IMG/VR virus record: IMGVR_UViG_3300017565_000017
Location: 192,779 to 242,859 of that record
Direction: 5' to 3' (one strand)
DNA: 50,081 nt
Source of the DNA: a virus
Taxonomy: Duplodnaviria; Heunggongvirae; Uroviricota; Caudoviricetes
The notes under the pieces: generated by a model
Databases searched by the model: none
Told to the model about the DNA's origin: nothing
Seen by the model: the letters and a program-made list of their open reading frames with translations, nothing else
Position numbers and translations under genes: made by a program
Part shown: one piece after another, positions 1,249 to 50,081 of the stretch
Layout of the letters: each line of letters begins with the position of its first letter
How positions within the stretch are numbered: position 1 is the stretch's first letter

Positions 1249-1747
1249 TCAACACCTCCGGTACATCCACTACACACTTAGCTAGTGCCTCATAGAACTT
1301 AGAATGTAACTGGTCAATTTCTTCCGAGCTAACGTCTGCTCCCCAACCCTGTACCAGTCGAGTGCTGGCGTCGATTTCCACGTAGTGTGAAATTGCCGAC
1401 GGCTGAATGAGCCCCATTGGAACGCCTTCCGCTAGAACCTGAGGAGCCACCTGATGGGATTCCGCCTTGCACTGAAAGTGCTTGAGCAGAGTGCGCATCA
1501 GCTGCACCAGAGGCTCCGTGCCAAAGTTGGAACCCGACAGGCCGGATGGGATCGGCAGGATCGTCCACTCAAACTGAGTGTCATAGGGCTTGTATTGGGC
1601 GTAAGCCACATATCGAGGGCGGGCGAACACGAAGGCTGTGTACTGGTCGGCATCGCTAGGCAGCTCGGGCACTGCTTCACTCCGTATCTGAGTCTGTTCC
1701 ATCTGGGGCTCCGAATTGGGCTTTGGTATACGAAATGGTCCGTTCAA
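1229..1747 (-). CDS. hypothetical protein (true start probably ATG at 1702)
   Basis: ORF packed in operon with overlapping neighbours. Confidence 0.65.
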   Translation of the reverse strand: MNGPFRIPKPNSEPQMEQTQIRSEAVPELPSDADQYTAFVFARPRYVAYAQYKPYDTQFEWTILPIPSGLSGSNFGTEPLVQLMRTLLKHFQCKAESHQVAPQVLAEGVPMGLIQPSAISHYVEIDASTRLVQGWGADVSSEEIDQLHSKFYEALAKCVVDVPEVLNEEHPD

Positions 1748-2732: not shown

Positions 2733-2743
2733 AAATCTCCACC

Positions 2744-3892
2744 TTATTTACGAACTACTTGCGGCTTGAATTGGAAAGGAGCCATGCCTTCCGGCTGTAC
2801 CGTCTTAGTCGGTGCCGGGTTGCCAAACAAGGCTTCGGTGTCGTCACGCTGGTCGTCAGCCGGGCTATTACCCTGACCAGCCACCACAACGGGCTCGTCA
2901 TCGTCGATAATCTTCAAAACGGGGTCTTCATCAACTTCAACAGAAGCCTTCGTAGCCACCGTCGACAGAGCGGCCAGCACGGTATCGCTAGGATCTTGCT
3001 GCTCGTACTTGGTCTCAACGCGAACACGCAGTTCAGGTTCGCGCTGCTCCGTAACCGGATCAGCTACAGGTTCGGGGTCCTGCTTCATTTCTGGCTCTGC
3101 CGGAGCGATTGGCGCAGGCATTTCATCGATGAGCAGTTCCTCTTCGAAATCACCGGCCATCGGGGTCGTGAAGATAATCGAAGCAAACATACCGTCCGGC
3201 GAAACAACCGGATAGGCTCCGTGGTAAGCAACCCAATCAACCACAATCCCGTTGATCGAGAACACAGGGTAGTATCCCTGAGCTTCGCCACTCGGGGTAA
3301 ACACAGAGTTCAGATCATCTAGCGTGAAGCCGTTCTGGGCAACCACCAACTTATGACGAATACGGCTACGGGCCGGATTCTCCATGTCGATATCCGGATC
3401 CTGCTCATATTGCAGAATGCTACCCGCCAGCGTAATAGCGTCAATGACAGGCTCTTCGCTACCCGCCGCCGTAAACACGGCCACAAGTTGGGAAGGCGCA
3501 GGCTCTTCCGTCGTTCCGCCCAGATCACCCCAATCACCTTCCATCGGCTCAGCACCCTCGCCTTGAGCCTGAGATTCACTGGCGATATTGCCAACAAGAT
3601 CCTCAAGGTTTGGCTCTTGAGGAGGATCCTGAAGAGCCTTCTCAAGCATATCCTCCATGTATACGTTAATCGTGATATACTCACGATTTTCAATATACGA
3701 TTCGATCGGTACGGCGTTGATCTTGCCCATGTCGTCAAGATACACAACCATGGGCGGATTGCGCTTGGCTGCTGCGCCCTTCAGTCGGGTGTTTGCCAGA
3801 TACAGGACAGTAGATTGACGACCGGTATCTACACGACGCCAGACATGACCCTTACCAAGAAGGGCAAGAGTTTCTTTGGAAATATCAGCCAT
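2744..3892 (-). CDS. acidic hypothetical protein
   Basis: 382-aa ORF, D/E/P-rich; GGAG RBS. Confidence 0.75.
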   Translation of the reverse strand: MADISKETLALLGKGHVWRRVDTGRQSTVLYLANTRLKGAAAKRNPPMVVYLDDMGKINAVPIESYIENREYITINVYMEDMLEKALQDPPQEPNLEDLVGNIASESQAQGEGAEPMEGDWGDLGGTTEEPAPSQLVAVFTAAGSEEPVIDAITLAGSILQYEQDPDIDMENPARSRIRHKLVVAQNGFTLDDLNSVFTPSGEAQGYYPVFSINGIVVDWVAYHGAYPVVSPDGMFASIIFTTPMAGDFEEELLIDEMPAPIAPAEPEMKQDPEPVADPVTEQREPELRVRVETKYEQQDPSDTVLAALSTVATKASVEVDEDPVLKIIDDDEPVVVAGQGNSPADDQRDDTEALFGNPAPTKTVQPEGMAPFQFKPQVVRK

Positions 3893-3930
3893 TATGTATA
3901 ACTCCGTAGGTTAAGGCTTACCCTGGATAT

Positions 3931-4266
3931 TTACGGTTTCGTTTCCAGCGGTTGGATATTAAATGCGTCGCGGATTGTCTGTGTCAGTGAAGCCTTGGAC
4001 ACGGAACAGACTTCCCATACGCCAACCATATTAGATACCCACTCAACTACCTGACCTTCCTGGAGCCGACCACTAGGGCCGGGGGCAGGGGGCCGGGGTA
4101 GCGGCGGACACGGGGCCAGCAACGATTCCTGGATGCGTACAGTATGCTTCTCTGGAACGACTGGCTGCTCAGGATTGCGGGGTGTAGTCTCACATGCAGT
4201 TAAGACGTAGGCGAAAGCTACAACAACTAGAATCCGCAGTATAATTCGATCTAGAGGAAGACTCAT
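3931..4266 (-). CDS. o-spanin (Rz1-like lipoprotein)
   Basis: Signal peptide with lipobox LTA-C, Pro-rich region, directly downstream of the i-spanin. Confidence 0.8.
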   Translation of the reverse strand: MSLPLDRIILRILVVVAFAYVLTACETTPRNPEQPVVPEKHTVRIQESLLAPCPPLPRPPAPGPSGRLQEGQVVEWVSNMVGVWEVCSVSKASLTQTIRDAFNIQPLETKP

Positions 4267-35548: not shown

Positions 35549-37753
35549 CTATAGTTCCGGTTTGAAGAAAGAATCGCCCGCTTTCCAGCGGCGCTCGAAC
35601 TGCACTTCACATAGCTTTATTTGGTCGGCCAGGGCAGACTCTAGGGTCTTCAAATCGTCCCTTAAACGGTCTTGGTCGTGAGAAGCACGCTTTTCCGCTA
35701 ATCTGCGTTTTAACGACACTATTTCCTTGTATTGTGGGATCTTCTGGATCAGGAACTTTTTCTTAGCGGCAAACTTAGTACCCCGTTTCTTAGTCGCCAC
35801 CGGATTTCCAGCCTGACGCTTCTGGAACTTGAGGGCGATGATCGAATGGAGATTGCGCAAGTCCTTAGTGTCTTCCTTGGTTAGCCCATTCCCAATTCCA
35901 AGATTCCCAATGTCCCAGGGCTCAATGAGGGTCGGAAGATCGGAGAATCCAAACTTCTTAACGTTTTCTGCACTAGCCTTATCTGGCAAGATCAGTAGTC
36001 GGTATGCGTCCATGTCTGGAACACGAATGCTAGATCGTGTTAAGGACTGCACTGCTTGGTCCACAAGGTGGTCTAGATCTGAATTATAGGAAGGACACAG
36101 GGCTTCCATAACTGTCTTGGCCCCTGGATGTGGATTAACGCTCGCCAGGAAGGCAAACACGTGATGCTCAATGTAAGCATTGGAACCTTGGCTCTTAAAC
36201 GGAACAAAGATAATGTCGTCGGCCCCAAATTTCAAAAGCTCTGCTTCACGTTCATAGCTACCATCCCCGACGTTAATCGTAGCCAGCAATGGAGTTGGAT
36301 CGTAGTTACCCTGAGCCTTGTTCCACGCTCGATTTATGTCGACACTACGCTTCAGTAGGTACTGGATTGGAGTATAGGGCTGGAGGTCCGGTAGAGTTTT
36401 GATATACGCTATCAGGTCTTCGTTGTTGGTTCGGAATCGAGACGTTCCACTGTAACCCTTGACCTTTGCTATACCGCGAATGAGATTCCGCAAGATATTG
36501 GGCTTCAGTCCAGCACCGGGGGCTGCATTGAGTTCCATAAGTCCAGAACTCCACAGATCCAGGTTGTCTCCAGGCTCCGGACGCACCACGATCCCATTGT
36601 CCAGGAGTCCCATACTGAGCTTCGACTGACCGGCGGACGCATACGTTATATAAGCCTGGGACCACGCTCGGCGTAACGCACGTTCCTGGATCTGGATGGA
36701 CGGCACACGCTTTTGCTCCAAATGGATAGGGCAGTCGATGTCTTGGATACGACGTTCAAACAAATCGTTGTCTTCCCCGTCCAGAGGTTCGTATCCGGAT
36801 AATCGTAGCATGTGGAACATTTGAGTGTTTTCCAGACGTGCTGCCATGATCGTAACGGTCTTCCATCCGTAAAACACCCGGGCTGGATCCAGAACGGTTT
36901 GGAGCTGTAAGGTGCATGTCCGTGGATTATACTGAGCCTGGCCCATAACACGGACCGCTGACCCGTACACGTGTTCCATAACCCTCTTCAGGTCTTTAAA
37001 CATGCGATCGACCTTTGGAGTGAGTCGATATTGAGCTACGTAGGACTGGAGCGCGTCGTCCAGTTCCTTGCGGGTCAATTTGGACTTGATCTCAATGGGG
37101 GTCCGAGCTTCATGGAGTTCTTGGAGGGGTAGGAACTTGCTGAGCACGCCTTCCAATTCCGGGGGCAAGATCATCTGCTCGGATTGTAGTACGCATTTCT
37201 GGGCTTCGTCAAAGATGACGCTCACGCGTTTGCGGTTAGGGAGCAATGATTTTCCATTTTCCTTGTAGCCGCTGTCCAGGCGTAAGAATGTCTCGTGGGC
37301 CATCATAATGACGGTTCCGCGCTCCAGCTTGGGTACTTCTATGTTGTTGATCCTTATGGACTTGGACACGGCACGCATCAACACCTTGGCTACTTCGCGC
37401 AGCGTGTTGAGTCCCAAGCTCTTCTTTAGGTCGTCGTTGATCTTGAAGATCCGAGGATGGAGGGCTGGGTCGACTCCCATACGAATTTTGTGCCCGATCT
37501 CGTCCAATAGTTTGTGTGTCGGGGCTGTGTAGATGGTGACTCCACTCCCGGTACGGATGCGATTCTGGATCACGCGGATGGCCCAATGGGTTTTACCTCC
37601 GCCGGGGAGCGATGACAGGTAATGTATAGTCTGTGGATGACCGTCTATCGAATAGAGGGGCATGATGTTCCAGTTAGTAAGTCCATGCAGGCTATTAACG
37701 GTATGACGTTTAACGGATTTTGTTAACGGAGGTCCGTTAAACGAGCGCAACAT
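35549..37753 (-). CDS. SF2-helicase-like protein, candidate origin-binding/initiator (true start may be 37663)
   Basis: PGGGKT, APTHKL, IFDEAQ, C-terminal Q..TRS..R; abuts repeat-rich non-coding DNA. Confidence 0.6.
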   Translation of the reverse strand: MLRSFNGPPLTKSVKRHTVNSLHGLTNWNIMPLYSIDGHPQTIHYLSSLPGGGKTHWAIRVIQNRIRTGSGVTIYTAPTHKLLDEIGHKIRMGVDPALHPRIFKINDDLKKSLGLNTLREVAKVLMRAVSKSIRINNIEVPKLERGTVIMMAHETFLRLDSGYKENGKSLLPNRKRVSVIFDEAQKCVLQSEQMILPPELEGVLSKFLPLQELHEARTPIEIKSKLTRKELDDALQSYVAQYRLTPKVDRMFKDLKRVMEHVYGSAVRVMGQAQYNPRTCTLQLQTVLDPARVFYGWKTVTIMAARLENTQMFHMLRLSGYEPLDGEDNDLFERRIQDIDCPIHLEQKRVPSIQIQERALRRAWSQAYITYASAGQSKLSMGLLDNGIVVRPEPGDNLDLWSSGLMELNAAPGAGLKPNILRNLIRGIAKVKGYSGTSRFRTNNEDLIAYIKTLPDLQPYTPIQYLLKRSVDINRAWNKAQGNYDPTPLLATINVGDGSYEREAELLKFGADDIIFVPFKSQGSNAYIEHHVFAFLASVNPHPGAKTVMEALCPSYNSDLDHLVDQAVQSLTRSSIRVPDMDAYRLLILPDKASAENVKKFGFSDLPTLIEPWDIGNLGIGNGLTKEDTKDLRNLHSIIALKFQKRQAGNPVATKKRGTKFAAKKKFLIQKIPQYKEIVSLKRRLAEKRASHDQDRLRDDLKTLESALADQIKLCEVQFERRWKAGDSFFKPEL

Positions 37754-37859
37754 AATTTTCTATAGGCGTGTTACGGACTGACAACGGAACCAGAGTGTAA
37801 TACTGGAACTGCTCAAAAAGTGTCCGTTAAACGAGCGCAACATAATTTTCTATAGGCGT
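37732..37859. repeat. 38-bp perfect direct repeat, 2 copies
   Basis: GTCCGTTAAACGAGCGCAACATAATTTTCTATAGGCGT at 37732-37769 and 37822-37859. Confidence 0.95.
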
Positions 37860-38818
37860 TTAACTGACGGGTTACGGACTACGTCCATGGTACGTAACGT
37901 TCATAGACTGGTAATACAACTGTTTTAAAAAATTTTCGTGGCGCAGCGTAGCGAGCAACGCACGGAGGCCGAAGGCCGACGTGTGTAATGGACACACAAC
38001 ACACTGTCCACTTCCTAGATAATTGGAGGCGGATGTTTTTGTACAAAGTTCCCGGCTTCCAGTCGCTGCGCTCCTTACCGCCGGGACCAACCTCCCTTCG
38101 GTCGGCGTTTTTGTAAGATAAGAGAAAGACCTAGAACCTAGGACTTAGACCCACAATTACACCTCCAATTACTCACTCTACACGGACTCTAATTCGGGAT
38201 AAAATCGGGGCTCCGGCGCTTACCCATGATTACCCCTTACTCACCCTAAAATTCCGTTTTTTACCGTCATTTCTATATCTACCTCTTTACCCCTAACTAA
38301 CCTCTACTTTACCTCTATCATAGGTTCTATACTTCTACTGGTTCTTGTCTATTACAGGTGTGTTCCAACTCCTATCTCTTTACGTACTGTGCCATACCCA
38401 AAATTTTTTAAGAACCACTTATTACCCATGTATCTCATTACCCTGTAGTCTAGGTCTTACACCTATTCTACTTGAGCTAGGAACTGGAACCGGGTACTGT
38501 CATGGGGCGCTCTGCGCCCACATTCAGTTGTAGGTTCGAGGTTCCAACCGGGTCCGGGTATAGGTGCTAACTCCATTTGAGCTAGGGTCTAGTTCCATTT
38601 CCTAGTTCTGAATCTTATTATCTGCGGAGATCGTTTGACTCCGAATTAACTCGGATTTTGTCGGTTTAACTCTTGTTTTTGTCACCCTGTGTATGGGTTA
38701 TATGTCCTGTGTATGAACGGGGGTCTGTGTAGTTCTGAATTGGCTACTGAGGGGGTGGGGTAGTTTTAGGTCCGTACATTGCTTACCTGGGTCTTGTGGT
38801 GTACGGGTCTATGCTTTG

Positions 38819-38892
38819 TCCAGTGTCCTTGGTCATGGTTTCCAGTGTTGTTCTATATCTTGCCCTGGTTTCCAGTGTTGTCCCAGTGTCCT
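38819..38892. repeat. CCAGTGT repeat cluster
   Basis: TGGTTTCCAGTGTTGT at 38836 and 38866; CCAGTGTCCT at 38820 and 38883. Confidence 0.85.
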
Positions 38893-39049
38893 GTTCGTCT
38901 TATCATGACGACTCCACGAACGGAGTCGCTTCGGGGTACTCACCTTCCTCCCCCTTTCACAGATATTACCCGACTCTTGTATTACTTCTTGGATCTTGGA
39001 TTGGAAGGAGCTACGGTGCTCCCATGACTTTTGACTGCGTCAAATGATA

Positions 39050-39093
39050 AAAGGCCGGTTAGGGGCTTAAACTACAAACCCTAACCGGCCTTT
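39050..39093 (-). terminator. 15-bp perfect inverted repeat downstream of kinase gene
   Basis: AAAGGCCGGTTAGGG / CCCTAACCGGCCTTT. Confidence 0.6.
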
Positions 39094-39144
39094 GTTATAC
39101 AACCCTAACCGCTACGGGTTAGGCTCCGGACTTGTTAACAAGTC

Positions 39145-40437
39145 CTAGTTCTTTGCAGCGTGTAGACGCGCTAGGGCTTGACCCAGCGCTTGGGACAGGT
39201 ATTGCACTTCCATTTCCAACATATGGATGTGACCCATCTTGTAGTCCGTGGGTATCTGTTGGGTAGGTAATACTTGACCTAGACCCACTGGACCTGGACC
39301 TGGAACCGGATTGGACGCAGGTACTGGATTTGGACTCACGGGCTCCGTGTTGGGCAGTTCACCCATGAGCTTGTTATACGCCTCATTCCATTTGGCCTCT
39401 TGTTGGGAGTGCCACTCAGCGCTGTAATCACCCTCCAACGGAGGCCACGCCTGATTAGCTGCCTGTGCTGCTTTACGTGCCTTGCGTTCAGCTCTCCGCA
39501 GTTGTCTCCAGCTTCTATAGAAGCGGCGGTACTCAGGCGGAGCATCATCCGCAGGCGCAATCATGTTGTGGTATGTAGAGACCTTCACCTTAGGTGACTT
39601 CTCAGTGCCGGATCCAGTGATACCCGCTTTACGAGCTTCGCGTGCGTCCTGAGCAGCCTTTTCCTTTTCGTATAATTGCTGATCGAACACCATAGCGCGC
39701 TGATCCACGTCATATTTGTAACCCAGAGTGCGCTCCCCGTTCTTATCCAGGGATTGTAATTCGATTTTGATCTCAGGGCGCAGTTCCCACTTGGACTCAG
39801 GTTCCCCAACTTGCCAGCCCTTAGTTGGATCATGGCCGAAAATCTTAGCCACCCACTCCCAACCTTCATTGCGATCCACGTACTTGGCTTGGACCCCCGC
39901 TTCTTCCAGCTTCTTCATGACGCCGGGTACGCTGTTAGCCTTGGAGATCAGGTTGTCAGGGTTGACATCGCTGGCGTTGGGGTCTTTGTCACGGCGACGG
40001 GCATTGACAGCCGCAATGCAGTCATCCATGGATGTGGTAAGGGCAAGGATACGAGACTGACCATTGGTCAGCTTGTTCATCTTGATGGTTTGGATGGCGT
40101 CCCCGGTATATAGGAGACCCTCGTTCAGTACATGATAGCCCTTGGCCCAGAAGTAGGCTACGAGCTCATTCATAGCTGCGTAATGGGAGATCGAATCGAG
40201 GCCACCACAACCGGCCGATCCTGCTTCGTAGTGACCAATGACTGCGAGGGGGCGCTTGCCTTCATTCTCGAACACGTGAGCGATGGGCTGACGCCGACCG
40301 TTCACAAAGTAATTAGTCTTGTACTTGTATTGGGACAAGAGCTTGAACACGATCGTGGTCTTGCCTGATCCTGACGTACCTTTAATACCTACCAGACGTT
40401 GCTTCTCTGGCTTGATCTGGCTCCAGTCTTTTGACAT
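39145..40437 (-). CDS. P-loop nucleotide kinase, putative 5-hmdU DNA kinase, with C-terminal extension
   Basis: GTSGSGKTT; IGHY....CGGLDSI; LNEGLL; C..AVNARR lid; matches the P-loop kinases of hypermodified-thymidine systems as recalled. Confidence 0.7.
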   Translation of the reverse strand: MSKDWSQIKPEKQRLVGIKGTSGSGKTTIVFKLLSQYKYKTNYFVNGRRQPIAHVFENEGKRPLAVIGHYEAGSAGCGGLDSISHYAAMNELVAYFWAKGYHVLNEGLLYTGDAIQTIKMNKLTNGQSRILALTTSMDDCIAAVNARRRDKDPNASDVNPDNLISKANSVPGVMKKLEEAGVQAKYVDRNEGWEWVAKIFGHDPTKGWQVGEPESKWELRPEIKIELQSLDKNGERTLGYKYDVDQRAMVFDQQLYEKEKAAQDAREARKAGITGSGTEKSPKVKVSTYHNMIAPADDAPPEYRRFYRSWRQLRRAERKARKAAQAANQAWPPLEGDYSAEWHSQQEAKWNEAYNKLMGELPNTEPVSPNPVPASNPVPGPGPVGLGQVLPTQQIPTDYKMGHIHMLEMEVQYLSQALGQALARLHAAKN

Positions 40438-40509
40438 TGCAGCATCCTATAAGGGTTTGTGAATGGGGATGAAATTGGGATCCACCCCTACACCTTATTT
40501 ACGATTTCC

Positions 40510-40770
40510 GCACCTGCTCCTGCTCCTGTTGGAGTAGGGTCTTCTGCTGCTTCTGCTGCTGTCGCTGGAGTCATTCCTCCTCTCCTGCTGCTCCTGCAAG
40601 ACTCTCCTGCTGCTGCACCTGGATTCATTCTCCTCTCCTGCTGCTGGAATGGACTCTCCTGCTGCCGCTGGAGTCATTCTCTTCTCCTGCTGCAGAATCA
40701 GATCTCCTGCTGCTGGAATGGACTCTCCTGCAGATCTCCTGCTGGATCTATCTCCTCTCCTGCTGGAATT
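40510..40770 (-). repeat. degenerate tandem CAGGAG repeat tract
   Basis: 12 CAGGAG copies on the minus strand; 29-bp exact repeat at 40634-40662 and 40703-40731. Confidence 0.9.
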
Positions 40771-41090
40771 GAGTCCGAGTCCTAGATCTAAGACCTGGAT
40801 CTTCGTCTCAGATCTGGGATCAGGATCCTCCTCCTAGATCGCGGAGAGCGACTCCGTCTCCCTGAGAGTCTACGTCTCTCCTGGATCCTGATCCCAGATC
40901 TCTGTCAGGGATCCCGGTCATGGGCGTCTATCATGGACGTCCAAGATTCCCCCTGGCCCGATCGCCGTCTGAATATTCAGATCTACGATCACCATGTGGG
41001 ATCCTGCTCATTGCTCCTAGATCCTGCTCACAGAGGGAGACTGGCGGCAACTGGATCTAGTGCATTGGACCGCGGAACTGGATCAGGGTC

Positions 41091-41492
41091 TTAGATCGTG
41101 GACGGGGACTCCTCTTCGGTAGAAATGTGGATCTGACCCAGGAGCTTGACGAGGCGAATGAATGGCTCGTGCAGTGACTCTGGGATGATACTCGCGTTCC
41201 GCTGAACACGCGCCGCATAGTGGCGGGCAGGCAACGGAAAGGAGTGGGGGCGCAGCATCGCTGCTTGTGTGTCGTGCAGATCTTGCAGCCAGTTGAGGAG
41301 CTTGACGAAGTCCTCTTCTGTCTTGTTCTTGATCCACAGATTGAATTCGTAGATTTCCCAGCTATTAAGCCACCGCTCGTCCTGGCGCAGCACGGCAAAG
41401 CGCTCGCGCAACAGGTCAGAACTGAGGCAACTGTGACACCGCTGCATGAACTCGGTGCCTAGTCTGTAGCTGTAGTCGTGATGTACGGTCAT
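41091..41492 (-). CDS. hypothetical early protein
   Basis: Likely start MTVHH at 41492, below a sigma70 promoter. Confidence 0.6.
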   Translation of the reverse strand: MTVHHDYSYRLGTEFMQRCHSCLSSDLLRERFAVLRQDERWLNSWEIYEFNLWIKNKTEEDFVKLLNWLQDLHDTQAAMLRPHSFPLPARHYAARVQRNASIIPESLHEPFIRLVKLLGQIHISTEEESPSTI

Positions 41493-41531
41493 CAATAACA
41501 AAACCCTAGGGCCACAATTGGCCCGGGTTGC

Positions 41532-41560
41532 ATTATGCACGGTTTTAAAAGGGGGCGCAA
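41532..41560 (-). promoter_or_regulatory. sigma70 promoter (leftward)
   Basis: TTGCGC-17-CATAAT. Confidence 0.7.
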
Positions 41561-41607
41561 CTCCTTGTATTACTCCGACTTTTTGCAAAAACGGGGCGGC
41601 TCCCAGT

Positions 41608-41636
41608 TTGCTATTTTTGCGCCCCCGTGCTATATT
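41608..41636 (+). promoter_or_regulatory. sigma70 early promoter
   Basis: TTGCTA-17-TATATT with extended -10 TG. Confidence 0.8.
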
Positions 41637-41688
41637 AAGGGCTGGCTAATACCCCTAGCCAGTAACCCTAACCGTAAAGGCAAACCGT

Positions 41689-42315
41689 ATGTCCCAGACC
41701 CTTGTTCCCCTGTCCCGCGATCAGATCATCGCTCACTACGTCTCCCAGTTGGGTAAGACTCAGGGTGTGGATCGAGGCCCGGACCTCCCTGTCGTGCCGT
41801 ATGTGTGCGCGTTCTTCGCTGATCTCATGTCCGGGGATTGCGATTCCTTCGAACCCTTTGATGAAGCTCGCCACGAGGTTCCGTTTCCGAAGTACTCGTA
41901 CCTCGCACTCAATGCTCTCGTGTCCGGTACTCTGCCTATCAACTCTGAGAACGACGAGGATGTCGAATGCCTCTGGGATAACGTCGATTACTTCGACGGC
42001 ACTCTCGGCTATTGGGCTGCTTCTGTTCAGGACTCGAAGCATCAGCCTCAGCCCGAAGCTCTGGCGGATCTTGAGATCTGGCTTCGGGAAGACCCTCTGG
42101 TTCGCGCTCCGTTGCTTGCCCGCTTCGTATGGTTCAACTCGGATTACGAGCAGGCGGAAACGCACGGTCGAGATCGAGAGTACGACATCAATGCCGATAA
42201 CTACGGCGAGTTCTATGGCCCGGCTCCAATGTCTGCCGCAGAATCTGCAGCGGCTATCCCGGAAAATCTCCACGAAGTCACCATCGACATCTACGAATTG
42301 GCCTGCAACGACTAA
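41689..42315 (+). CDS. early hypothetical protein, paralog family A
   Basis: 208 aa after promoter; shares motifs with the 42418 ORF. Confidence 0.8.
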   Translation: MSQTLVPLSRDQIIAHYVSQLGKTQGVDRGPDLPVVPYVCAFFADLMSGDCDSFEPFDEARHEVPFPKYSYLALNALVSGTLPINSENDEDVECLWDNVDYFDGTLGYWAASVQDSKHQPQPEALADLEIWLREDPLVRAPLLARFVWFNSDYEQAETHGRDREYDINADNYGEFYGPAPMSAAESAAAIPENLHEVTIDIYELACND

Positions 42316-42334
42316 TCCCTGACCCGCCCGGGGG

Positions 42335-42363
42335 TTGCGCGTAGCGCGCCCCCGTGTTATATT
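42335..42363 (+). promoter_or_regulatory. sigma70 early promoter
   Basis: TTGCGC-17-TATATT, extended -10. Confidence 0.8.
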
Positions 42364-42417
42364 TGTGTACGGCGTAACCCCGCGCCCTAATGCCCTAACC
42401 GTAAAAAGGTACACCGT

Positions 42418-42948
42418 ATGTACGACACTACCATGATCCCCCTCCAGAATCTGCCCTGGCTTTCTGCGTTTATCCAGGACCTGTTCCCACCCGATGGTAG
42501 CGCTGGGGACGGGGAGCTGGATTACTTCGACGAAGCTGCCCGCGAAGCCAAGCACACCCCGTTCGTGTTCCCGCTGTTTATGTCCCTGATCCAGGGCAAG
42601 AACCTGCCTCCCACTGACTATATGTACGCTAAACATATGTACGTCACTCACACGGAGGCCGAGCTCCAGCTCCTAACTGAACTCAATGTCTGGTTGTCCC
42701 GGGATATCAGCCATGCTGTGTTCCTTGCCGAGTTCCTGTGGTACTCTTCGGATTATTGTTGGATTGAATTGCACGAGGTTGAGAGGCCCGAGGTGTATGA
42801 AGATTCGGAGCCGGAACCTGGGTCTATCCGTCGGTACAAGTACACGGGGGCGGGGCCGACGTCGGCTCCTATCTTTGCCTCTCTGGTCCCCCAGAAGTTC
42901 CATGCGATCATGGGGCGTTGGTTCACTCAGATGTGCTACTACGGGTAA
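42418..42948 (+). CDS. early hypothetical protein, paralog family A
   Basis: 176 aa; FDEA, L.VWL..D, LAEFLWYSSDY, GPTSA. Confidence 0.8.
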   Translation: MYDTTMIPLQNLPWLSAFIQDLFPPDGSAGDGELDYFDEAAREAKHTPFVFPLFMSLIQGKNLPPTDYMYAKHMYVTHTEAELQLLTELNVWLSRDISHAVFLAEFLWYSSDYCWIELHEVERPEVYEDSEPEPGSIRRYKYTGAGPTSAPIFASLVPQKFHAIMGRWFTQMCYYG

Positions 42949-42958
42949 GGGGCGTAAC

Positions 42959-43492
42959 ATGGGAACTTCTGCATCCATTATCTGCCACACTGGCTCCTAC
43001 ACGTGGGCTAACGACGTTCACTACGATGGTGACCTGTCTCACGTGGGTCTGCTCTTGGTCAACGCGTACCCCCGTCTTGAGGTCATTCAGCCCCTGGTCC
43101 ACGGCGGTTCCATGTCGGGCCTCGCCGCCATGTCTGGTTATCCGGCCCTCGATGATGACGATCGCGAGAAGATGCGTATGGCCGAGATCATGCGCACTCA
43201 CCATGATCGTCCCTACATGAAGAATCTGGTCTCGGTCTATTACCACCGAGACAAGAAAGAGCCTTGGGACCTCTGCAAGTATCGCACGTACAACTCGCTG
43301 GCCGAAGCGATCAAGGGTGAAACCTGCGACTATGTGTACGTGTGGCATGAGCCGACTCAGCGTTGGTATTGGGCGAATTGCGAGCAGCATCCTCGGTCGC
43401 TGACATCCAAGATACTGGCTGCTCGTCAGCCCGTGGTTGGTGTGCCTCTGTCCATTGCTTTGGAACACCAGCGTAAGAGCCCAGGCGCGTAA
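42959..43492 (+). CDS. conserved-type phage hypothetical protein
   Basis: Start MGTSASI; H.DG....VG..L...Y and CDYVYVW motifs typical of a widespread phage family. Confidence 0.75.
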   Translation: MGTSASIICHTGSYTWANDVHYDGDLSHVGLLLVNAYPRLEVIQPLVHGGSMSGLAAMSGYPALDDDDREKMRMAEIMRTHHDRPYMKNLVSVYYHRDKKEPWDLCKYRTYNSLAEAIKGETCDYVYVWHEPTQRWYWANCEQHPRSLTSKILAARQPVVGVPLSIALEHQRKSPGA

Positions 43493-43505
43493 CGCTACAT
43501 GGGGC

Positions 43506-43534
43506 TTGCGCCCCCGCCCCCACTGCTATATAAT
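43506..43534 (+). promoter_or_regulatory. sigma70 early promoter
   Basis: TTGCGC-17-TATAAT. Confidence 0.85.
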
Positions 43535-43588
43535 GTGGTACGGGCTACCCCTGGCCCTAAGTAAACCCTAACCGTATAGGCTAACCCC

Positions 43589-44215
43589 ATGTCCCTCCCT
43601 CACTTCAATCCGAACACGGCCGACGTCAGCAACGTGCGGGGCGTCCTCATGAACGCGCTCCGTACGTCGGCAGCCCTGGACCAGGAACGTGCGTATTCGA
43701 CGATCACTCATGTTCTGGCTATTGCCCAGGACGTGTATGAGATTCGTCTTCATGAAATCGAGCGCATCGTTGCCAGCAGCGCCACGAATGCCATCCAGGT
43801 GTTCCAGTACATCACCCGTGCTCTCGAGTCGATTCGCAACGAGCGGTGGGAGCTGCCGAAAAACGAGCTGGCTCCGACCCATTCGTACGACACGTACCAG
43901 CTTACTCGGCTCACGATCCTTCTGTGCAACATCGTGGCGCAGGACATTCCTGTCGTTGGTCTGTACCAGCGCCATTATGAAATGGTGCCTCTCATGGATC
44001 GCTACTACATTCTGCGGGCTAATCTCGTTCGGCTCAATGCGGAGTTCGACGAACTTGAGCAGAAGTCGGATGGTGATGATGATGCTGATGAGGAGGCCAT
44101 GGAAGAAATGCGCCCGTTCATCACCCCGATCTATGACGCTGTCGAGCAGATGCGTTTGCACCTGAACAAGAAGTTGGGTTTCGTCGGCGTCGAGATTCAA
44201 GGCGCTGCCTTCTAA
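43589..44215 (+). CDS. early hypothetical protein
   Basis: 208 aa between promoter and terminator. Confidence 0.8.
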   Translation: MSLPHFNPNTADVSNVRGVLMNALRTSAALDQERAYSTITHVLAIAQDVYEIRLHEIERIVASSATNAIQVFQYITRALESIRNERWELPKNELAPTHSYDTYQLTRLTILLCNIVAQDIPVVGLYQRHYEMVPLMDRYYILRANLVRLNAEFDELEQKSDGDDDADEEAMEEMRPFITPIYDAVEQMRLHLNKKLGFVGVEIQGAAF

Positions 44216-44258
44216 AGAACCTGTCAGGGTGGGCCAGCCGGCCCCATCTTGATCTTTC

Positions 44259-44283
44259 GGGGACCTTCGGGTTCCCTCTTTTT
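44259..44283 (+). terminator. intrinsic terminator
   Basis: GGGGACC-TTCG-GGTTCCC then TCTTTTT. Confidence 0.85.
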
Positions 44284-44284
44284 G

Positions 44285-44331
44285 GACTCCAGGTCTAAGA
44301 TCTTCGTCCTAGATCTAAGAGAGCGACTCCG
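44285..44331 (+). repeat. 47-bp GA/TC-rich intergenic box
   Basis: Near-identical to 47141-47187; 3' half also at 40836-40856. Confidence 0.85.
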
Positions 44332-44361
44332 GTCCGGAGGAAAAATAAATGTGTGGCGGGG

Positions 44362-44390
44362 TTGCGCCCTAGCCCTTATTACGCTATACT
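44362..44390 (+). promoter_or_regulatory. sigma70 early promoter
   Basis: TTGCGC-17-TATACT with upstream A-tract. Confidence 0.85.
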
Positions 44391-44443
44391 TTAGTTAATG
44401 GCTAACCCCGGCCAGTAAAAGCCCTAACCGTATAGGCTACCCC

Positions 44444-44851
44444 ATGTCCCAAGCTACCCTCCCCGAGATCGTCAAGGTCTTCATCAGCGAACCCCACGGC
44501 GAAGACTACGTTCCGGATCCGGCGCGTGTCGACGCCATCGTTGCTCGCGTCGAAAAGCGTATCCCCGCCCCCAAAATCCAGCAAGCACTCGACTGGATCA
44601 ACAACACTCCCATCGCCGACCCCTCCGGTAAGTCTGGGGATAAACTCCACTGGTCAATGTATTGCATCAGTGGGTTCGGTATGCCTCCCCATCCGTGGGT
44701 TCCCTTCGAACTTCAAGACGAAGTGGCTTATCTACTCGTAAAGATTTTCAATTGGGTGTGCTTCACGGATCTGTCGGGCACGCTGCCCCGCCCCGCCACC
44801 TTCGGTCAAATCCGTAAGGTTTATCGCGAAGCCATCGGCCTCGACTTCTAA
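44444..44851 (+). CDS. early hypothetical protein
   Basis: 135 aa. Confidence 0.75.
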   Translation: MSQATLPEIVKVFISEPHGEDYVPDPARVDAIVARVEKRIPAPKIQQALDWINNTPIADPSGKSGDKLHWSMYCISGFGMPPHPWVPFELQDEVAYLLVKIFNWVCFTDLSGTLPRPATFGQIRKVYREAIGLDF

Positions 44852-44860
44852 GGATCGACC

Positions 44861-45205
44861 ATGCACATCACCAATCTGTATGTCATGGCCTCGATGGCTA
44901 CCCTCGGCCACCACGAGGGTCTCGAGGCTACTGTCCGTGATCTTCATGCCATCGCCAAGGGCTACGAGTCGTGGGACCACTACCACGCCTTCGGTTCTCA
45001 GCCGGTGGATCCCTCGATCCTGGATACCAATCACGCTAACTTCGAGATTACCATCAAGTGCGTGGGTGAAATCCAAGGCCAGATTCGTTATCACCTGTGG
45101 TACGAAGCTCCAGACATTGGGGCTATGAGTTCGGCTACCAAACGAATCACCATCTACACCGACCTCAATGGTCTGGTCGCTAACGTGGAGCTCGACAATG
45201 TCTGA
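44861..45205 (+). CDS. early hypothetical protein
   Basis: 114 aa, AAGGA RBS. Confidence 0.75.
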   Translation: MHITNLYVMASMATLGHHEGLEATVRDLHAIAKGYESWDHYHAFGSQPVDPSILDTNHANFEITIKCVGEIQGQIRYHLWYEAPDIGAMSSATKRITIYTDLNGLVANVELDNV

Positions 45206-45572
45206 TTCTAACCTCATCGAACAACTGCTGGACAAGGATCTCTGGATCTTGCGGGCTCTGGTGCTTGCCTACTACCGGGGCGCACAATCGGAATCCGAAT
45301 GGGATCCGCAGGACGCCATCGGCACTGCTGCCTTCGCGCTGAACCATGCGTCGAACACGACCGGCATTGGCCTCGTGTGGGTCAACCACGAGCTCCGCGC
45401 CCCCATGCTGTTCCTGGACTGCCACCGCTTGCTCGAAGCACTCGGTGAAGCGGAACTCGTGGGCGAAAGCGCCCCCGTGCCTCAGGTCCTCATCAATCGA
45501 GTGCCTCACGAGCTTCACCTGTTCCTCACTCACTTCATCGACGCGTCTACGGGGTCACCGTCGAAAGAGTAA
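45198..45572 (+). CDS. early hypothetical protein, possible distant family A paralog
   Basis: Start MSDSN with GGAG RBS; RAPML and VP.ELH motifs. Confidence 0.7.
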   Translation: MSDSNLIEQLLDKDLWILRALVLAYYRGAQSESEWDPQDAIGTAAFALNHASNTTGIGLVWVNHELRAPMLFLDCHRLLEALGEAELVGESAPVPQVLINRVPHELHLFLTHFIDASTGSPSKE

Positions 45573-45595
45573 AAACCGGGGGCGCTGGCCCCCGT

Positions 45596-45624
45596 TTTAC
45601 ATTGCGCCGCCCCCGTGTTATACT
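45596..45624 (+). promoter_or_regulatory. sigma70 early promoter, overlapping a terminator hairpin at 45576-45598
   Basis: TTTACA-17-TATACT, extended -10. Confidence 0.8.
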
Positions 45625-45656
45625 TATTACCCTAACCCTAACAACCTGGAAAAACC

Positions 45657-46643
45657 ATGGCCGACTCCAAATCCCCTATCGAACAGCTCCTGTCGGCGCT
45701 CGATAGCGACAGCGAGGTTCAAACCCTCCGCGTCGAGGGTAACAACCTCGAAGAAGTGCTCCAGAACCTGCGCCAGCAAGCGCCGGAAGGTATCCCGCCG
45801 GAAGTGCTGTCGGCGATGGAAAACATCATCCGCAAGAAGTTCGGCGAGCGCGATTCTGCTTCCCATTCGGGCAAGTCCAAGGTCCCGGTCATCGACCACT
45901 GGACCGAGCAGGAGCGCGATATGTTCGTGTCGACCCTCAGCGCCCTGTTCAACAACCTGGGCCGCTACGATCCGGACCTCGACAGCCCGGAGATCGTTAA
46001 CAAGGGCATCGCCCATCTGGTGTTCTGCCCGCAGTGGGACCCGGAAAAGGTGCGCCCCCTGATCATCTGGATGCTGGAGAACCCGGCACGCATCCCCAGC
46101 ATGATCAACGTGATGAACACGTTCGTCCACGGGCTGGCCTGCAAGTTCCCCATCCCCTCGGTGGAAGACCTCAAGCTCAAGGATGAGCTGGCGGAAGACC
46201 GCGCCCTCGACATCACCCATCCGGCCATGCTGCATCTGGCCGAAACCATCATGGACCACGTGGACAACGCCTTCCACGAAGGCAACATGATTGCGTCTCT
46301 GCTTTCCTACGCGGTGCCCGACGCCTACGTGCTCAACGGCACGTGCAAGGACCACGAGGAGGCAGACGCTCGCTTCGACAACGAGCGCATGACCACGGTG
46401 GTCAATCAGCTTCTCAAGGACGAGACGCTGTCGCCCCATGCGGCCAATACCGCGCTCTACAGCACGACTGTCGCCCTTCCGGCCAAGATGTATCTCATTG
46501 CCCGCGCTCTGGGCAACGATTCGACGGTCGAACGCATGACTGGCCGTCTGCCGGATACCGTGGTCAAGGTCCTGGATGCTGCCGCGCTTCTGTGCTTCGG
46601 CGTCAAGGCCATCAAGGGCAAGAGCGACACGGTGCTCCACTGA
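45657..46643 (+). CDS. early hypothetical protein
   Basis: 328 aa, strongly G/C-ending codons. Confidence 0.85.
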   Translation: MADSKSPIEQLLSALDSDSEVQTLRVEGNNLEEVLQNLRQQAPEGIPPEVLSAMENIIRKKFGERDSASHSGKSKVPVIDHWTEQERDMFVSTLSALFNNLGRYDPDLDSPEIVNKGIAHLVFCPQWDPEKVRPLIIWMLENPARIPSMINVMNTFVHGLACKFPIPSVEDLKLKDELAEDRALDITHPAMLHLAETIMDHVDNAFHEGNMIASLLSYAVPDAYVLNGTCKDHEEADARFDNERMTTVVNQLLKDETLSPHAANTALYSTTVALPAKMYLIARALGNDSTVERMTGRLPDTVVKVLDAAALLCFGVKAIKGKSDTVLH

Positions 46644-46666
46644 CCTAAAGCTGCACTAATTACCCC

Positions 46667-46692
46667 GGGGGCGCGCTGTGCGCCCCTTTTTA
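46667..46692 (+). terminator. intrinsic terminator
   Basis: GGGGCGC-GCTGT-GCGCCCC then TTTTT. Confidence 0.8.
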
Positions 46693-46756
46693 TTTGCGCA
46701 CGTGTACACGGTTTACAACGCCTAAAAATATTTTTATTGTTTTACACGTTAGGGGG

Positions 46757-46785
46757 TTGCACAAGTGTATAACACGCCCTATAAT
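46757..46785 (+). promoter_or_regulatory. strong sigma70 promoter with AT-rich UP element
   Basis: TTGCAC-17-TATAAT. Confidence 0.9.
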
Positions 46786-46878
46786 ACATACATGGATCGC
46801 AAAACAGCGAACCTAACCTAGCAAACCGGGCATGGTGCCCGGTAGTAAACCTCCCACTGTAGGGAAAGGAGAAGTTCC

Positions 46879-47088
46879 ATGACCACCCAAGCCCAAGCCC
46901 CCGCCAAGAACCTGAAGCCCGTCAACGTGCTGAAGTACGTCGTGAACGGCGAAGCGAAGACCGAAAACTACACGCGCTTCTCCGAGCTGGCGAAGCGCCA
47001 GTCCGAGCTCCTGAAGGACGGCGTGTCGGTCACCATCGAACCCCGCATGGGTGAAGTGAAGACGCAGGTCTCCATCGTCCTCGACTAA
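46879..47088 (+). CDS. small, probably highly expressed early protein
   Basis: 69 aa, AAGGAG RBS, extreme codon bias, own promoter and terminator. Confidence 0.85.
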   Translation: MTTQAQAPAKNLKPVNVLKYVVNGEAKTENYTRFSELAKRQSELLKDGVSVTIEPRMGEVKTQVSIVLD

Positions 47089-47115
47089 CCGTCGGCGGTC
47101 GCCATGGCAGTACCG

Positions 47116-47140
47116 GAGGGCCGCGTGGCCCTCTTCTTTT
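47116..47140 (+). terminator. intrinsic terminator
   Basis: GAGGGCC-GCGT-GGCCCTC then TTCTTTT. Confidence 0.85.
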
Positions 47141-47187
47141 GACTCTAGGTCTTAGATCTGAGTCCAAGATCGTGGAGAGCGAGTCCG
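47141..47187 (+). repeat. 47-bp GA/TC-rich intergenic box
   Basis: Second copy of 44285-44331. Confidence 0.85.
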
Positions 47188-47221
47188 ATCTTGATAGACC
47201 TAAACAAAGTTACAATAAAGT

Positions 47222-47250
47222 TTTACAGGCCGTTAACGTTAGGTTATAAT
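47222..47250 (+). promoter_or_regulatory. sigma70 early promoter
   Basis: TTTACA-17-TATAAT. Confidence 0.9.
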
Positions 47251-47288
47251 TACTTTACCCCTAACCCTTAGCCGTATAAGGTACTCCC

Positions 47289-47696
47289 ATGTTGCAAACC
47301 CAGACCCCGGTCCAGACCACGAAGCATCGCCGCACCCGCATGAGTAAGCCCACCTCTGTTTTGTCACGTGTTCGTTCTGCTCAGTGGGCCAAGGCCACCG
47401 AGCTCCTGTTCCGGTCTCTCACCAATTCCCGCACGTCGTTCCCTGACGAGGCTTTGGCTCTGACCTACGTTGACCGTGTCATGGAAATCGTTCGGGCCAC
47501 GCCTGCCCGCCAGCTTCAGATCCTCGAGAACTGGCTCAAGTCCCAAGACACCCACATGACGCTCGCTGTCGATTACATGGACCAGCTCTACCGCTTCTCT
47601 TACGAGGGTGGCTTGGTTCCGGTCTGTCGTGATCTGGTGGACCCGGGCGTGCGCCCGTCCCTCAATCAACTCCTTCATCTCAAGGTCCAGCTCTAA
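47289..47696 (+). CDS. early hypothetical protein
   Basis: 135 aa, AAGG RBS. Confidence 0.75.
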   Translation: MLQTQTPVQTTKHRRTRMSKPTSVLSRVRSAQWAKATELLFRSLTNSRTSFPDEALALTYVDRVMEIVRATPARQLQILENWLKSQDTHMTLAVDYMDQLYRFSYEGGLVPVCRDLVDPGVRPSLNQLLHLKVQL

Positions 47697-47727
47697 ACCC
47701 CCTCACAAGACCAGGAGCTGGATTTTT

Positions 47728-47752
47728 GGAGCCTCCCGGGGCTCCTCTTTTT
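47728..47752 (+). terminator. intrinsic terminator
   Basis: GGAGCCTC-CCG-GGGCTCC then TCTTTTT. Confidence 0.8.
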
Positions 47753-47834
47753 GTTTGTAACAAATGGGCTTTACATATAGGTAATATGTTTTACCTAGGG
47801 TTTGCCGGTATAGCCTGTTTATATGGTGTATACT

Positions 47835-48112
47835 GCGTTTGTTGGTTGCTGCCTTGCAGTAACGCAAACGCCCCCCTACAAAGCCCCTAGGGGGCGCGTA
47901 TAGGCCACAAGTTTACGGTAGGGCTGTAGTGATAGCCGGTCAGTGCGACGCAACGTCCACTCGGTATCCGCAGCCCGGTTAGGGGGAGGTTTCTCTAGGG
48001 GTAGAGAACCTCCACTCGGTTCTCAGCGCAGTGATGTGTTGAGGGTATTCGCTTCTCCCGGCGAATAGACGACCCGGTAGCTCTTAATCGAGCTACCGGG
48101 TCGCTGAGTTTT
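47835..48112 (+). ncRNA. candidate structured non-coding RNA
   Basis: ORF-free; seven consecutive hairpins ending in a 14-bp perfect stem and T-run. Confidence 0.6.
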
Positions 48113-48118
48113 TGGCCC

Positions 48119-48147
48119 TTGTTTTTGCTGGGGGCGCATGTTATACT
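48119..48147 (+). promoter_or_regulatory. sigma70 early promoter
   Basis: TTGTTT-17-TATACT, extended -10 TG. Confidence 0.75.
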
Positions 48148-48188
48148 TGTTTTACACCCTAACCCCTAACCGCGTATAGGAGCGCCGG

Positions 48189-48380
48189 ATGGAGAAAGTC
48201 CAAATCCTGCAAGAACTCCAACTCCGAGGCCAAACCCGTCCTGATTCGTGCCCCATTGTCGATGCCATTATCGACATGATCACTGATGACAACAAGTGGC
48301 CTCTGGTCCAGGAGCTGATCCAGCACTGTGCGTCGCCTCAAGATGCGGTCAACTATCTTATGGAGACTCACCATGCGTGA
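48189..48380 (+). CDS. early hypothetical protein
   Basis: 63 aa, AGGAG RBS. Confidence 0.7.
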   Translation: MEKVQILQELQLRGQTRPDSCPIVDAIIDMITDDNKWPLVQELIQHCASPQDAVNYLMETHHA

Positions 48381-48633
48381 ATATGTCGCCAACCCCGTAC
48401 AAGACGCCCTGGACAACATGCCCCCGCTCACGTCGGTGGGCGACTTCTACATGATTCGCAACAAGGTCAGTGGCGAATTCGTCATGCAGGACATGGTCGA
48501 CGAAGGTAAAGTGCCGTTCCTGTGCCACAATGTCCAGACGGCTCGTGCGTGGTTCAAGGCCCACGAGAACCCCGAGCAGGCCAACCTCGACTACGAGGTC
48601 GTCATGGTCGATGGCTGGCGGCTTGAGCGGTGA
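48373..48633 (+). CDS. early hypothetical protein
   Basis: Likely start MREYV, GGAG RBS. Confidence 0.7.
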   Translation: MREYVANPVQDALDNMPPLTSVGDFYMIRNKVSGEFVMQDMVDEGKVPFLCHNVQTARAWFKAHENPEQANLDYEVVMVDGWRLER

Positions 48634-48812
48634 CAGTCTACGGGATTGTCAATCTAATGACCAACAAGTTCCTCATGGACAAGGCTGTGCATTGGCCTGC
48701 CTTGTTCGAAACTGTGGATCTTGCGATGGAGCGACGCCGCAAGCTGTCCGCCCCCGAGTTTTGGTCTGTCGTCCCCATTCCCGTTAACGGCCCTCAAGCA
48801 GACACCGAATGA
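48630..48812 (+). CDS. early hypothetical protein
   Basis: 60 aa, 4-bp overlaps on both sides. Confidence 0.65.
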   Translation: MTVYGIVNLMTNKFLMDKAVHWPALFETVDLAMERRRKLSAPEFWSVVPIPVNGPQADTE

Positions 48813-49216
48813 TTTACGTCCAGGACCTCGACGCATTGCCTGCCGCACTCACCGCGTGGGTCGACGAAACGTCTACTCGCATCAACGCCAATACGCACTT
48901 CCGTTCGGGTGGCGAGAACAATCGTGACTGGGACTGGGAAATCTACGTGCGTCGTACCCGCCACTGCATTCGTGGCAAAGTCTATACGACAATCGATCTG
49001 GCGACTATCGGCGTTATCCCGGCTCTCCGCCGTCAAGGTATCGCCAAGCGCTTGATCGAGATTGTTGAAGCAGAAGCGGCTCGACGTCAACATATCGTTT
49101 ACGTCGAGAACGTCATCAACCCTAACCTAGAACTGTATCTAAGGAGGCGCGGCTATCAGTCAGTACATTTCGATCAGCACTTCGGACCCACCCTAGCGCG
49201 GGATCCCGCCATCTAG
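48809..49216 (+). CDS. GNAT-family acetyltransferase
   Basis: LATIGVIPALRRQGIAKRLI acetyl-CoA motif A; N..L..YL.RRGY motif B. Confidence 0.8.
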   Translation: MIYVQDLDALPAALTAWVDETSTRINANTHFRSGGENNRDWDWEIYVRRTRHCIRGKVYTTIDLATIGVIPALRRQGIAKRLIEIVEAEAARRQHIVYVENVINPNLELYLRRRGYQSVHFDQHFGPTLARDPAI

Positions 49217-49396
49217 TTCTAGAGCAGATGGGGGTGTTGGCAGCCTCCTCCCTACATCGAAAAGATAAACTATTGTCAGTGACTCGGCGTATAGTGGGAC
49301 AGCACGTCAGTAAACCGGGGCCGCACACCGGGTCTAGAATTATTGGTCGGGGGCGCGTAGCGCCCCCTTTGCTTACCCTAACCTACCTCTATCTAC

Positions 49397-49906
49397 ATGA
49401 CTGTCACCTACGAGAAACTTCCCTACGCCTCCGAGCTGGTCCCCGTTACGCCGTGGCTCCCGGACAACTCTGACGAAGATCACGTAGTGCTTCGCCGACT
49501 CTTTACCCGAGAGTGCGATGATGGTGCGTATGCGGTTCTACAGTTGTTTGTTTGCGTCAATGAGGAGCGGGTGTATTCGACGCTTTTGGAAGCGGAACAG
49601 GACGTCTCGTCTATTTCTATGGATGTATCGCTAGAATGTAGCAACGGTGATACGTGGGATTACGTTATGTACGACGCCCCCGCGTCCAAGTTTGCAGGTC
49701 GCCCGATCACGGATGAGAGCCTGGCTGATTGGCTCAATCTTGCAATCGCTCCGTGGGTGCCTCTGGCTCTTGAAGATTCGATTACTGAAGAGATTGTGCG
49801 CAAGGCGCGCTCGGTCTCGGACTACAGCGCAAACACCGACGCTGTGATGTTCCTGTCCGCTGAAGACCACGAGCAAGAAGACGTGGACGAAGAGGACGCG
49901 GGCTAA
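49397..49906 (+). CDS. acidic early hypothetical protein
   Basis: 169 aa, D/E-rich. Confidence 0.75.
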   Translation: MTVTYEKLPYASELVPVTPWLPDNSDEDHVVLRRLFTRECDDGAYAVLQLFVCVNEERVYSTLLEAEQDVSSISMDVSLECSNGDTWDYVMYDAPASKFAGRPITDESLADWLNLAIAPWVPLALEDSITEEIVRKARSVSDYSANTDAVMFLSAEDHEQEDVDEEDAG

Positions 49907-49918
49907 TTTTTAGCCCCC

Positions 49919-49947
49919 TTGCGCCCCCGGGGCTACGGTGTTATACT
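49919..49947 (+). promoter_or_regulatory. sigma70 early promoter
   Basis: TTGCGC-17-TATACT, extended -10. Confidence 0.85.
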
Positions 49948-49977
49948 GGCGTTACCCTAACCCCTAGGTGATACCGT

Positions 49978-50081
49978 ATGGCCCTATTTCTAGCTAATGC
50001 CCTTAACGCCCGTGGTAAACGGGTGTACGCCGTAGTGCGGGGCGACCCCCGTGCCAATTCGGGGGCGGTCGTAGACCAATA
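49978..50081 (+). CDS. early hypothetical protein, partial
   Basis: AGGTG RBS, open frame MALFLANALNARGKRVYAVVRGDP... to the window end. Confidence 0.6.
   Translation, partial: MALFLANALNARGKRVYAVVRGDPRANSGAVVDQ

Follow-up and report, generated by a model that had tools for sequence, protein, structure and literature searches.

The DNA considered here is a stretch of 50,081 nucleotides (nt; the window, to which coordinates refer unless another sequence is named) that forms the last 50 kb of the 242,859-bp virus record IMGVR_UViG_3300017565_000017 (G000), from a phage of the Caudoviricetes. Promoters of this phage lie in tracts from which the dinucleotides GA and TC, the same step on the two strands of the duplex, have been purged. 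On balance, a probable explanation is that the T of TC bears a mark in the virion DNA, with 5-phosphomethyl-uracil possibly the base that is left, and that such a mark would protect the genome while poisoning the initiation of transcription, promoters having been purged of its target.

The initial annotation of the window had listed 12 GA/TC-free tracts, all of which are present with exactly the coordinates and lengths given, and a genome-wide count of such gaps against simulated controls reveals a large excess in the real genome. Over 243 kb there are 54 tracts of at least 70 nt, 24 of them of at least 100 nt and the longest of 206 nt, whereas ten local second-order Markov simulations yielded 0-2 gaps of at least 70 nt and none of at least 100 nt. 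Genome-wide, GA plus TC amount to 0.129 per base, near expectation, and the genes flanking the tracts, which had been described as rich in GA/TC, carry it at an ordinary rate (observed-to-expected ratio, O/E, of 1.02-1.07). Gaps of at least 70 nt in the window number 12 for GA/TC, 2 for AA/TT and 0 for each of AC/GT, AG/CT, CA/TG and CC/GG, and in the whole genome no other comparable dinucleotide pair exceeds 6 gaps of 70 nt. Among non-coding segments of 50 nt the GA/TC count is bimodal, with zero in 48 of 434, and the structural region (14-80 kb) contains no tract of at least 70 nt. The GC content of the tracts ranges from 0.35 to 0.60.

A -10-like hexamer of the sigma70 type occurs in 47 of the 54 tracts, a start codon lies in or beside 34, and four are mostly coding. 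On the plus strand of the window, a GA/TC-free sigma70-type promoter with its leader and start codon is found at 41602-41692, and promoters with leader and start codon follow at 42322-42424, 43478-43592 (likewise purged in the ortholog of L085; L-numbers denote loci of related phages) and 44341-44447. A terminator hairpin and a promoter share the tract at 45568-45649, a terminator and promoter region occupies the 153 nt of 46643-46795, the promoter at 47198-47285 matches the consensus at 11 of 12 positions, and promoters with leaders lie at 48107-48180 and 49896-49970. The view that the tracts cover promoters and leaders stands for most of those in the window, where 10 of 12 have a -10-like hexamer and 7 of 12 a called start codon inside or within 45 nt. 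By the pattern used, no -10 was recognised in the 79-nt tract at 39047-39125, which contains hairpins directly downstream of a kinase gene, or in the 70-nt tract at 41493-41562, a possible leftward promoter divergent to that at 41602, with an orthologous tract in L085/L122; the 185-nt tract at 47747-47931 (plus strand, ortholog in L085/L122) has a -10-like hexamer and precedes a hairpin-rich region free of open reading frames (ORFs). From their sequence, the tract promoters are presumed to be early, and their start sites are predicted.

In a set of 35 promoters, the purge affects both strands and extends some 30-40 nt to either side of the first base of the -10 hexamer, covering about -50 to +25, an interval that coincides with the known footprint of the sigma70 holoenzyme. 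GA and TC each drop from about 22 per 10-nt bin to 0-4 within 30 nt of the -10 start on either side, with depletion only partial at -40 and at +30 to +50, and TG, CA, GG and AG persist across the same promoters, TG being abundant. The commonest -35 calls, TTGCGC and TTTACA, are GA-free variants of the consensus, none of them containing GA, and CC is enriched in the leaders. Since this set was curated with the GA/TC counts in view, the unbiased test is a blind rule, in which a single definition of candidate promoter was applied to eleven genomes and GA/TC was counted in 50 flanking nt. Under this rule 27 of the 50 candidates in G000 have no GA/TC at all in flanks that should each contain about 6, and the other ten genomes have no fully purged candidate, except for 1 of 21 in phage CAjan (phage iggy has 0 of 12). 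In this analysis, the O/E of GA/TC corrected for local composition is 0.35. A generic sigma70 scan, with 9 found and 7.2 expected, is too noisy to discriminate. The ribosome-binding sites had been said to avoid GGA, which proves true in part: GGA or GAG precedes 15 of 36 tract-led genes and 222 of 316 others (p=0.001).

The purge is maintained by purifying selection. When seven promoter cores of G000 are compared with those of a relative, GA/TC is involved in 1 of 32 isolated substitutions where 14 are expected, whereas the same test on adjacent coding DNA gives 30 such substitutions against 28 expected. Restriction-site avoidance in phage genomes is likewise a loss of motifs by purifying selection; the present case differs in that the word has only two bases and is lost only locally, at promoters, and in that the phage apparently avoids its own mark and not a host nuclease. 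Promoter tracts recur in four related lineages (L085/L122, L087, L123 and L124).

By its polymerase and about 100 other proteins, the phage is affiliated with Ralstonia phage phiRSL1 (RSL1), Achromobacter phage Motura and Burkholderia phages BCSR5 and BcepSauron (Sauron), its nearest cultured relatives, with a polymerase identity of 44-52%. The replication block is syntenic in all of them and holds a modification cassette that can be swapped, yet these four phages have no GA/TC-free tracts, against the 54 of G000. The cassette locus lies beside the sigma factor gene (L013, L014, L015, L119) and holds deazaguanine genes in Motura, glycosyl/sulfo-transferases in RSL1 and L119, and a plain thymidylate synthase in Sauron. 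G000 encodes a sigma-factor-like protein, and no RNA polymerase subunits turned up in family scans that covered part of its genes. The phage sequence is best represented in soil metagenomes, possibly its source samples.

The gene content points to a thymidine modification. A predicted dUMP hydroxymethylase gene (G000 191073-192137) is 44% identical to M6 gp58 (E 5e-77) and matches phrog_5131 (E 7e-101); next to it, the gene for aGPT-Pplase1 (HMUDK_hel; PF18723, E 2e-41) reaches into the window with its 5' part (1-376, minus strand), and G000 also has a dUTPase/dTTPase (PF08761, E 1e-15). The order of aGPT-Pplase1, dUMP hydroxymethylase-like gene and dUTPase is conserved in four relatives. The candidate writer of the mark is encoded at 39145-40437 on the minus strand, and consists of a P-loop domain (residues 1-200) of the 5-hydroxymethyldeoxyuridine (5-hmdU) DNA kinase family and a C-terminal extension of 230 residues that is found only in this lineage and has no fold or atlas match. 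This kinase falls in the same PHROG (800) as M6 gp54, its profile matches M6 gp54 and SP10 gp186, and among named folds it best matches the 5-hmdU kinases of SP10 (E 4e-9) and PhiW-14 (E 1e-7); four of its five nearest homologs in IMG/VR lie in records that carry an ADDT gene. PHROG 800 and RefSeq call the M6 5-hmdU DNA kinase (L057 5686-6249) a ‘terminase small subunit’, a misannotation that hides the family. The identity of the kinases of the tract-bearing relatives lies between 75% and 50%, the latter in a separate cluster, and no homolog was found in RSL1, Motura or BCSR5, three nearly whole genomes that are all tract-less. In RSL1, the hydroxymethylase and Pplase1 are accompanied by glycosyl/sulfo-transferases, and such a kinase and the tracts are both absent. 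In the divergent relative L117/L124 (JGI contig Ga0596950_0000013), which has the same kinase and hydroxymethylase locus, the genome-wide O/E of GA/TC is about 0.63 and promoter tracts reach at most 224 nt. An HNH endonuclease gene abuts the start of the kinase gene in L085 (9193-10008) and L123 (1410-2339), and is absent there in G000.

Phages shed restriction sites unless a modification protects them, so the avoidance of sites is informative on which step is marked. Among GC-rich 6-mer palindromes, counted as avoided when their O/E falls below 0.5, none of the 8 that contain TC is avoided in G000, against 15 of the 24 others (p=0.002), and those with TG are not spared (4 of 8 avoided, against 11 of 24), although this is an indirect test of context. 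Applied to M6 (p=0.003) and ViI (p=0.007), the same test picks out TG; M6 retains TG-containing palindromes only. Thymidine hypermodification is reported to favour TG or TC, with the M6 kinase modifying TG and the phages M6 and ViI both TG or TC (PMC6449724), and the DNA packaged by thymidine-hypermodifying phages has its modifications in sequence context and contains no free 5-hydroxymethyluracil (hmU) (PMC8989533). A protective mark at the TC/GA step is, in this way, supported.

These elements can be arranged into a mechanism. As the genes suggest, hmU would replace thymine during phage DNA replication, and the 5-hmdU DNA kinase would phosphorylate it specifically in 5'-TC steps. Because the known transferase was not found, the mark would either stay as 5-phosphomethyl-uracil or be finished by an unrecognised enzyme. 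It would shield TC-containing sites from host restriction, and the elongating polymerase would tolerate it, given the normal frequency of TC/GA in genes. On incoming virion DNA, the same mark would block the binding or opening of promoters by the host sigma70 RNA polymerase, and selection would therefore strip TC, on both strands and over the whole interval from about -50 to +25, from every promoter that the host polymerase must read, even at the expense of the GA-containing consensus -35 hexamer. In vitro, the output of Escherichia coli polymerase after phosphorylation by 5-HMUDK is 10% of that from the hmU template (PMC6457204), and major-groove modifications inhibit at initiation (PMC4838386). 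That tenfold loss involved the same enzyme family and polymerase class; it differs from the mechanism outlined here in its artificial template, its other kinase and its unmapped context and position, and its authors proposed a role in bacterial defence and not in phage promoter design.

Compared with the 5-HMUDK/ADDT pathway of M6, ViI, PhiW-14, SP10 and SH-Ab 15599 (PMC8989533, PMC13458397, PMC6449724), the phage has in common the dUMP hydroxymethylase-like gene, the dUTPase, the P-loop kinase and aGPT-Pplase1, as well as a dinucleotide context that spares restriction sites. It differs in its extended kinase, located 39 kb from the other pathway genes, in a context that would be TC and not TG, and in its promoter purge. 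Neither Pplase3 nor an N6/N4-methyltransferase was found in G000, and scans of about 190 proteins against Pfam, PHROG and NCBIfam, in which most small ORFs stayed unannotated, gave no glycosyltransferase, ADP-ribosyltransferase or Mom-like enzyme.

Several observations weigh against a thymidine mark at TC. The ADDT transferase (aGPT-Pplase2) was not found, with no match to PF18724, PF18746 or an ADDT profile in G000, which lacks about 8 kb at its junction, or in the loci of relatives. The missing segment, which would join the two ends of this open record, is present in a relative (L122 11600-20300), where it holds small ORFs, none of them matching DpdA or ADDT. The kinases tested in print lean to TG, and the in vitro work did not separate phosphorylation of the promoter from that of the gene body (PMC6457204). 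In M6, PhiW-14, ViI, SP10 and SH-Ab 15599, four of which were sampled at 40-60 kb, promoters are not purged of TG or TC, and a purge is thus no necessary consequence of a T mark alone; as a speculation, the missing transferase could explain why those phages lack one, if the acidic phosphate is retained here in place of the amine with which most of them end. The correlation between kinase and tracts rests on one clade and counts as one event. The palindrome test was defined after the data had been seen, yields p=0.053 when GC is left unmatched and falls short of significance in both iggy and CAjan, and we take it as supporting and not decisive. Finally, a guanine mark leaves a signature of a related kind, for iggy and CAjan, in which G is marked at GA, have long gaps and a GA/TC O/E of 0.78-0.87. 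The initial annotation had proposed that the T of 5'-TC, or another base of this step, carries a bulky modification in virion DNA, and that promoters read by host sigma70 polymerase were purged of it. The location at promoters, the double-strand rule, the purifying selection, the 5-hmdU kinase and the protective mark at TC/GA agree with that proposal; it is weakened by the missing transferase, the source of the bulky group in every characterised pathway, by the unpurged promoters of the known T-hypermodified phages and by guanine-marked phages that show a weaker depletion.

If the mark were on the other base of the step, most plausibly the G of GA as a 7-deazaguanine made by a divergent phage enzyme or by the host, the promoter logic would be the same and the thymidine genes would be a separate matter. 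The palindrome test is blind to T versus G, and GA and TC being one duplex step, the sequence points to the step and not to the base. DpdA-type modification in iggy and CAjan concerns this very step, and no other reference phages combine GA/TC depletion with long gaps, one of which lies over a promoter-like site in iggy (PMC10484667, PMC7544227). However, their depletion is diffuse and mostly coding, whereas that of G000 is strict and centred on promoters with a normal genome average, and the blind rule finds next to no purged promoters in them. DpdA-like genes do occur at the matching locus of Motura, with its deazaguanine cluster, and of BCSR5, both of which lack tracts. In G000 and nine loci of relatives no profile match to DpdA/TGT was detected, although the controls iggy, CAjan, Motura and BCSR5 were; FolE was not found in any of these either, nor in G000 any convincing match to the que genes of iggy, CAjan and Motura, although the host could supply the precursor. 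Small 7-deazapurine changes are, moreover, tolerated by polymerase in vitro (PMC4838386). We regard a guanine mark as unlikely.

Also improbable is that virion DNA bears no standing mark, and that GA/TC in promoter DNA or in the open complex is instead bound or modified by a protein, either a host-shutoff factor of the phage or a defence protein of the host, from which phage promoters escape because they lack the word. Such a factor would fit a purge that follows the polymerase footprint, it could tell host from phage by the GA of the host consensus -35 and Shine-Dalgarno sequences, and many early proteins are unannotated. It leaves unexplained the genome-wide escape of TC palindromes from site avoidance, the low genome-wide O/E of the L117/L124 relative and the kinase, and we know of no duplex-binding factor with so short a target. 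Readers of RNA, such as CmdT (GA in single-stranded RNA), Rho (YC) or CsrA/RsmA (GGA), are very unlikely to drive the pattern. They would account for the avoidance of GA/GGA in leaders and some ribosome-binding sites, CmdT does modify GA in mRNA (PMC11618068), and a block of CAGGA repeats lies at 40505-41060; but the purge reaches 30-40 nt upstream of the -10 into untranscribed DNA, GA and TC are equally lost on the message strand, the loss stops near the start codon with coding regions normal, and CC enrichment in leaders is contrary to an avoidance of Rho. Barely credible is a by-product of local base composition or of one duplicated promoter and leader family: many tracts do have a leader motif and -10 context in common (in IMG/VR this motif matches only loci without tracts), but spacers and upstream parts are unrelated among promoters that are all purged, the wide range of tract GC and the composition-corrected ratio argue against composition, and both the substitutions, provided that the orthologous alignments are correct, and the synonymous codons of the 0-4 kb island described below avoid the word.

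The density of GA/TC is patterned both ways, as deserts and as boxes at twice the background. The GA/TC-saturated boxes come after terminators, directly upstream of purged promoters, and only in this part of the genome: at 44283-44342 (0.27 per nt; conserved in L085/L122) and 47139-47199, immediately 5' of the tracts at 44341 and 47198, and as copies at 40763-40920, with conserved counterparts at L122 4412-4483, 8176-8225 and 11602-11653. The copies at 40763-40920 belong to a non-coding block dense in GA/TC that precedes the kinase gene on its upstream side (40505-41060) and bears 16 CAGGA repeats on the minus strand; these have a CsrB/RsmZ-like look, recur about 12 kb away in L122 and have no Rfam match, none having been found above threshold in 37500-50081. 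Positions 1-4000 of G000 and the matching 7 kb or so of L122 (13500-20700) form an island with half the usual GA/TC density, synonymous codons included, where CTC/GAG is the most depleted context and TTC and ATC the least. A wider proposal, which we hold only tentatively, is that a so far undescribed TC-specific thymidine mark, possibly bare 5-phosphomethyl-uracil as the final base, is combined with the density of its target word as a hard-wired epigenetic map, in which deserts would sit at initiation sites of the host polymerase, the half-density island would cover the first-expressed genes, and the saturated boxes between terminators and promoters would act as insulators or binding sites.

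Elsewhere in G000, a gene with a saccharopine-dehydrogenase fold (98943-100247), which we take to be homospermidine synthase-like, adjoins a glutathionylspermidine synthase gene (101580-102779); the pair is common to RSL1 and Motura, and thus not specific to the GA/TC pattern.

The initial annotation knew of no description of such a design, and we likewise found none of phage promoters purged of a modification motif in the literature searched, which left out most subscription papers; the papers on iggy and CAjan mention neither promoters nor depletion (PMC10484667, PMC7544227). The promoters described here suggest one way in which an unmodified host polymerase could transcribe heavily modified phage DNA at the onset of infection, namely the exclusion of the modified word. 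If this is true, sequence alone would reveal the motif at which phage DNA is modified, promoters could be located as motif deserts, and a thymidine pathway that dispenses with the known transferase would lead to a new base or a new enzyme.

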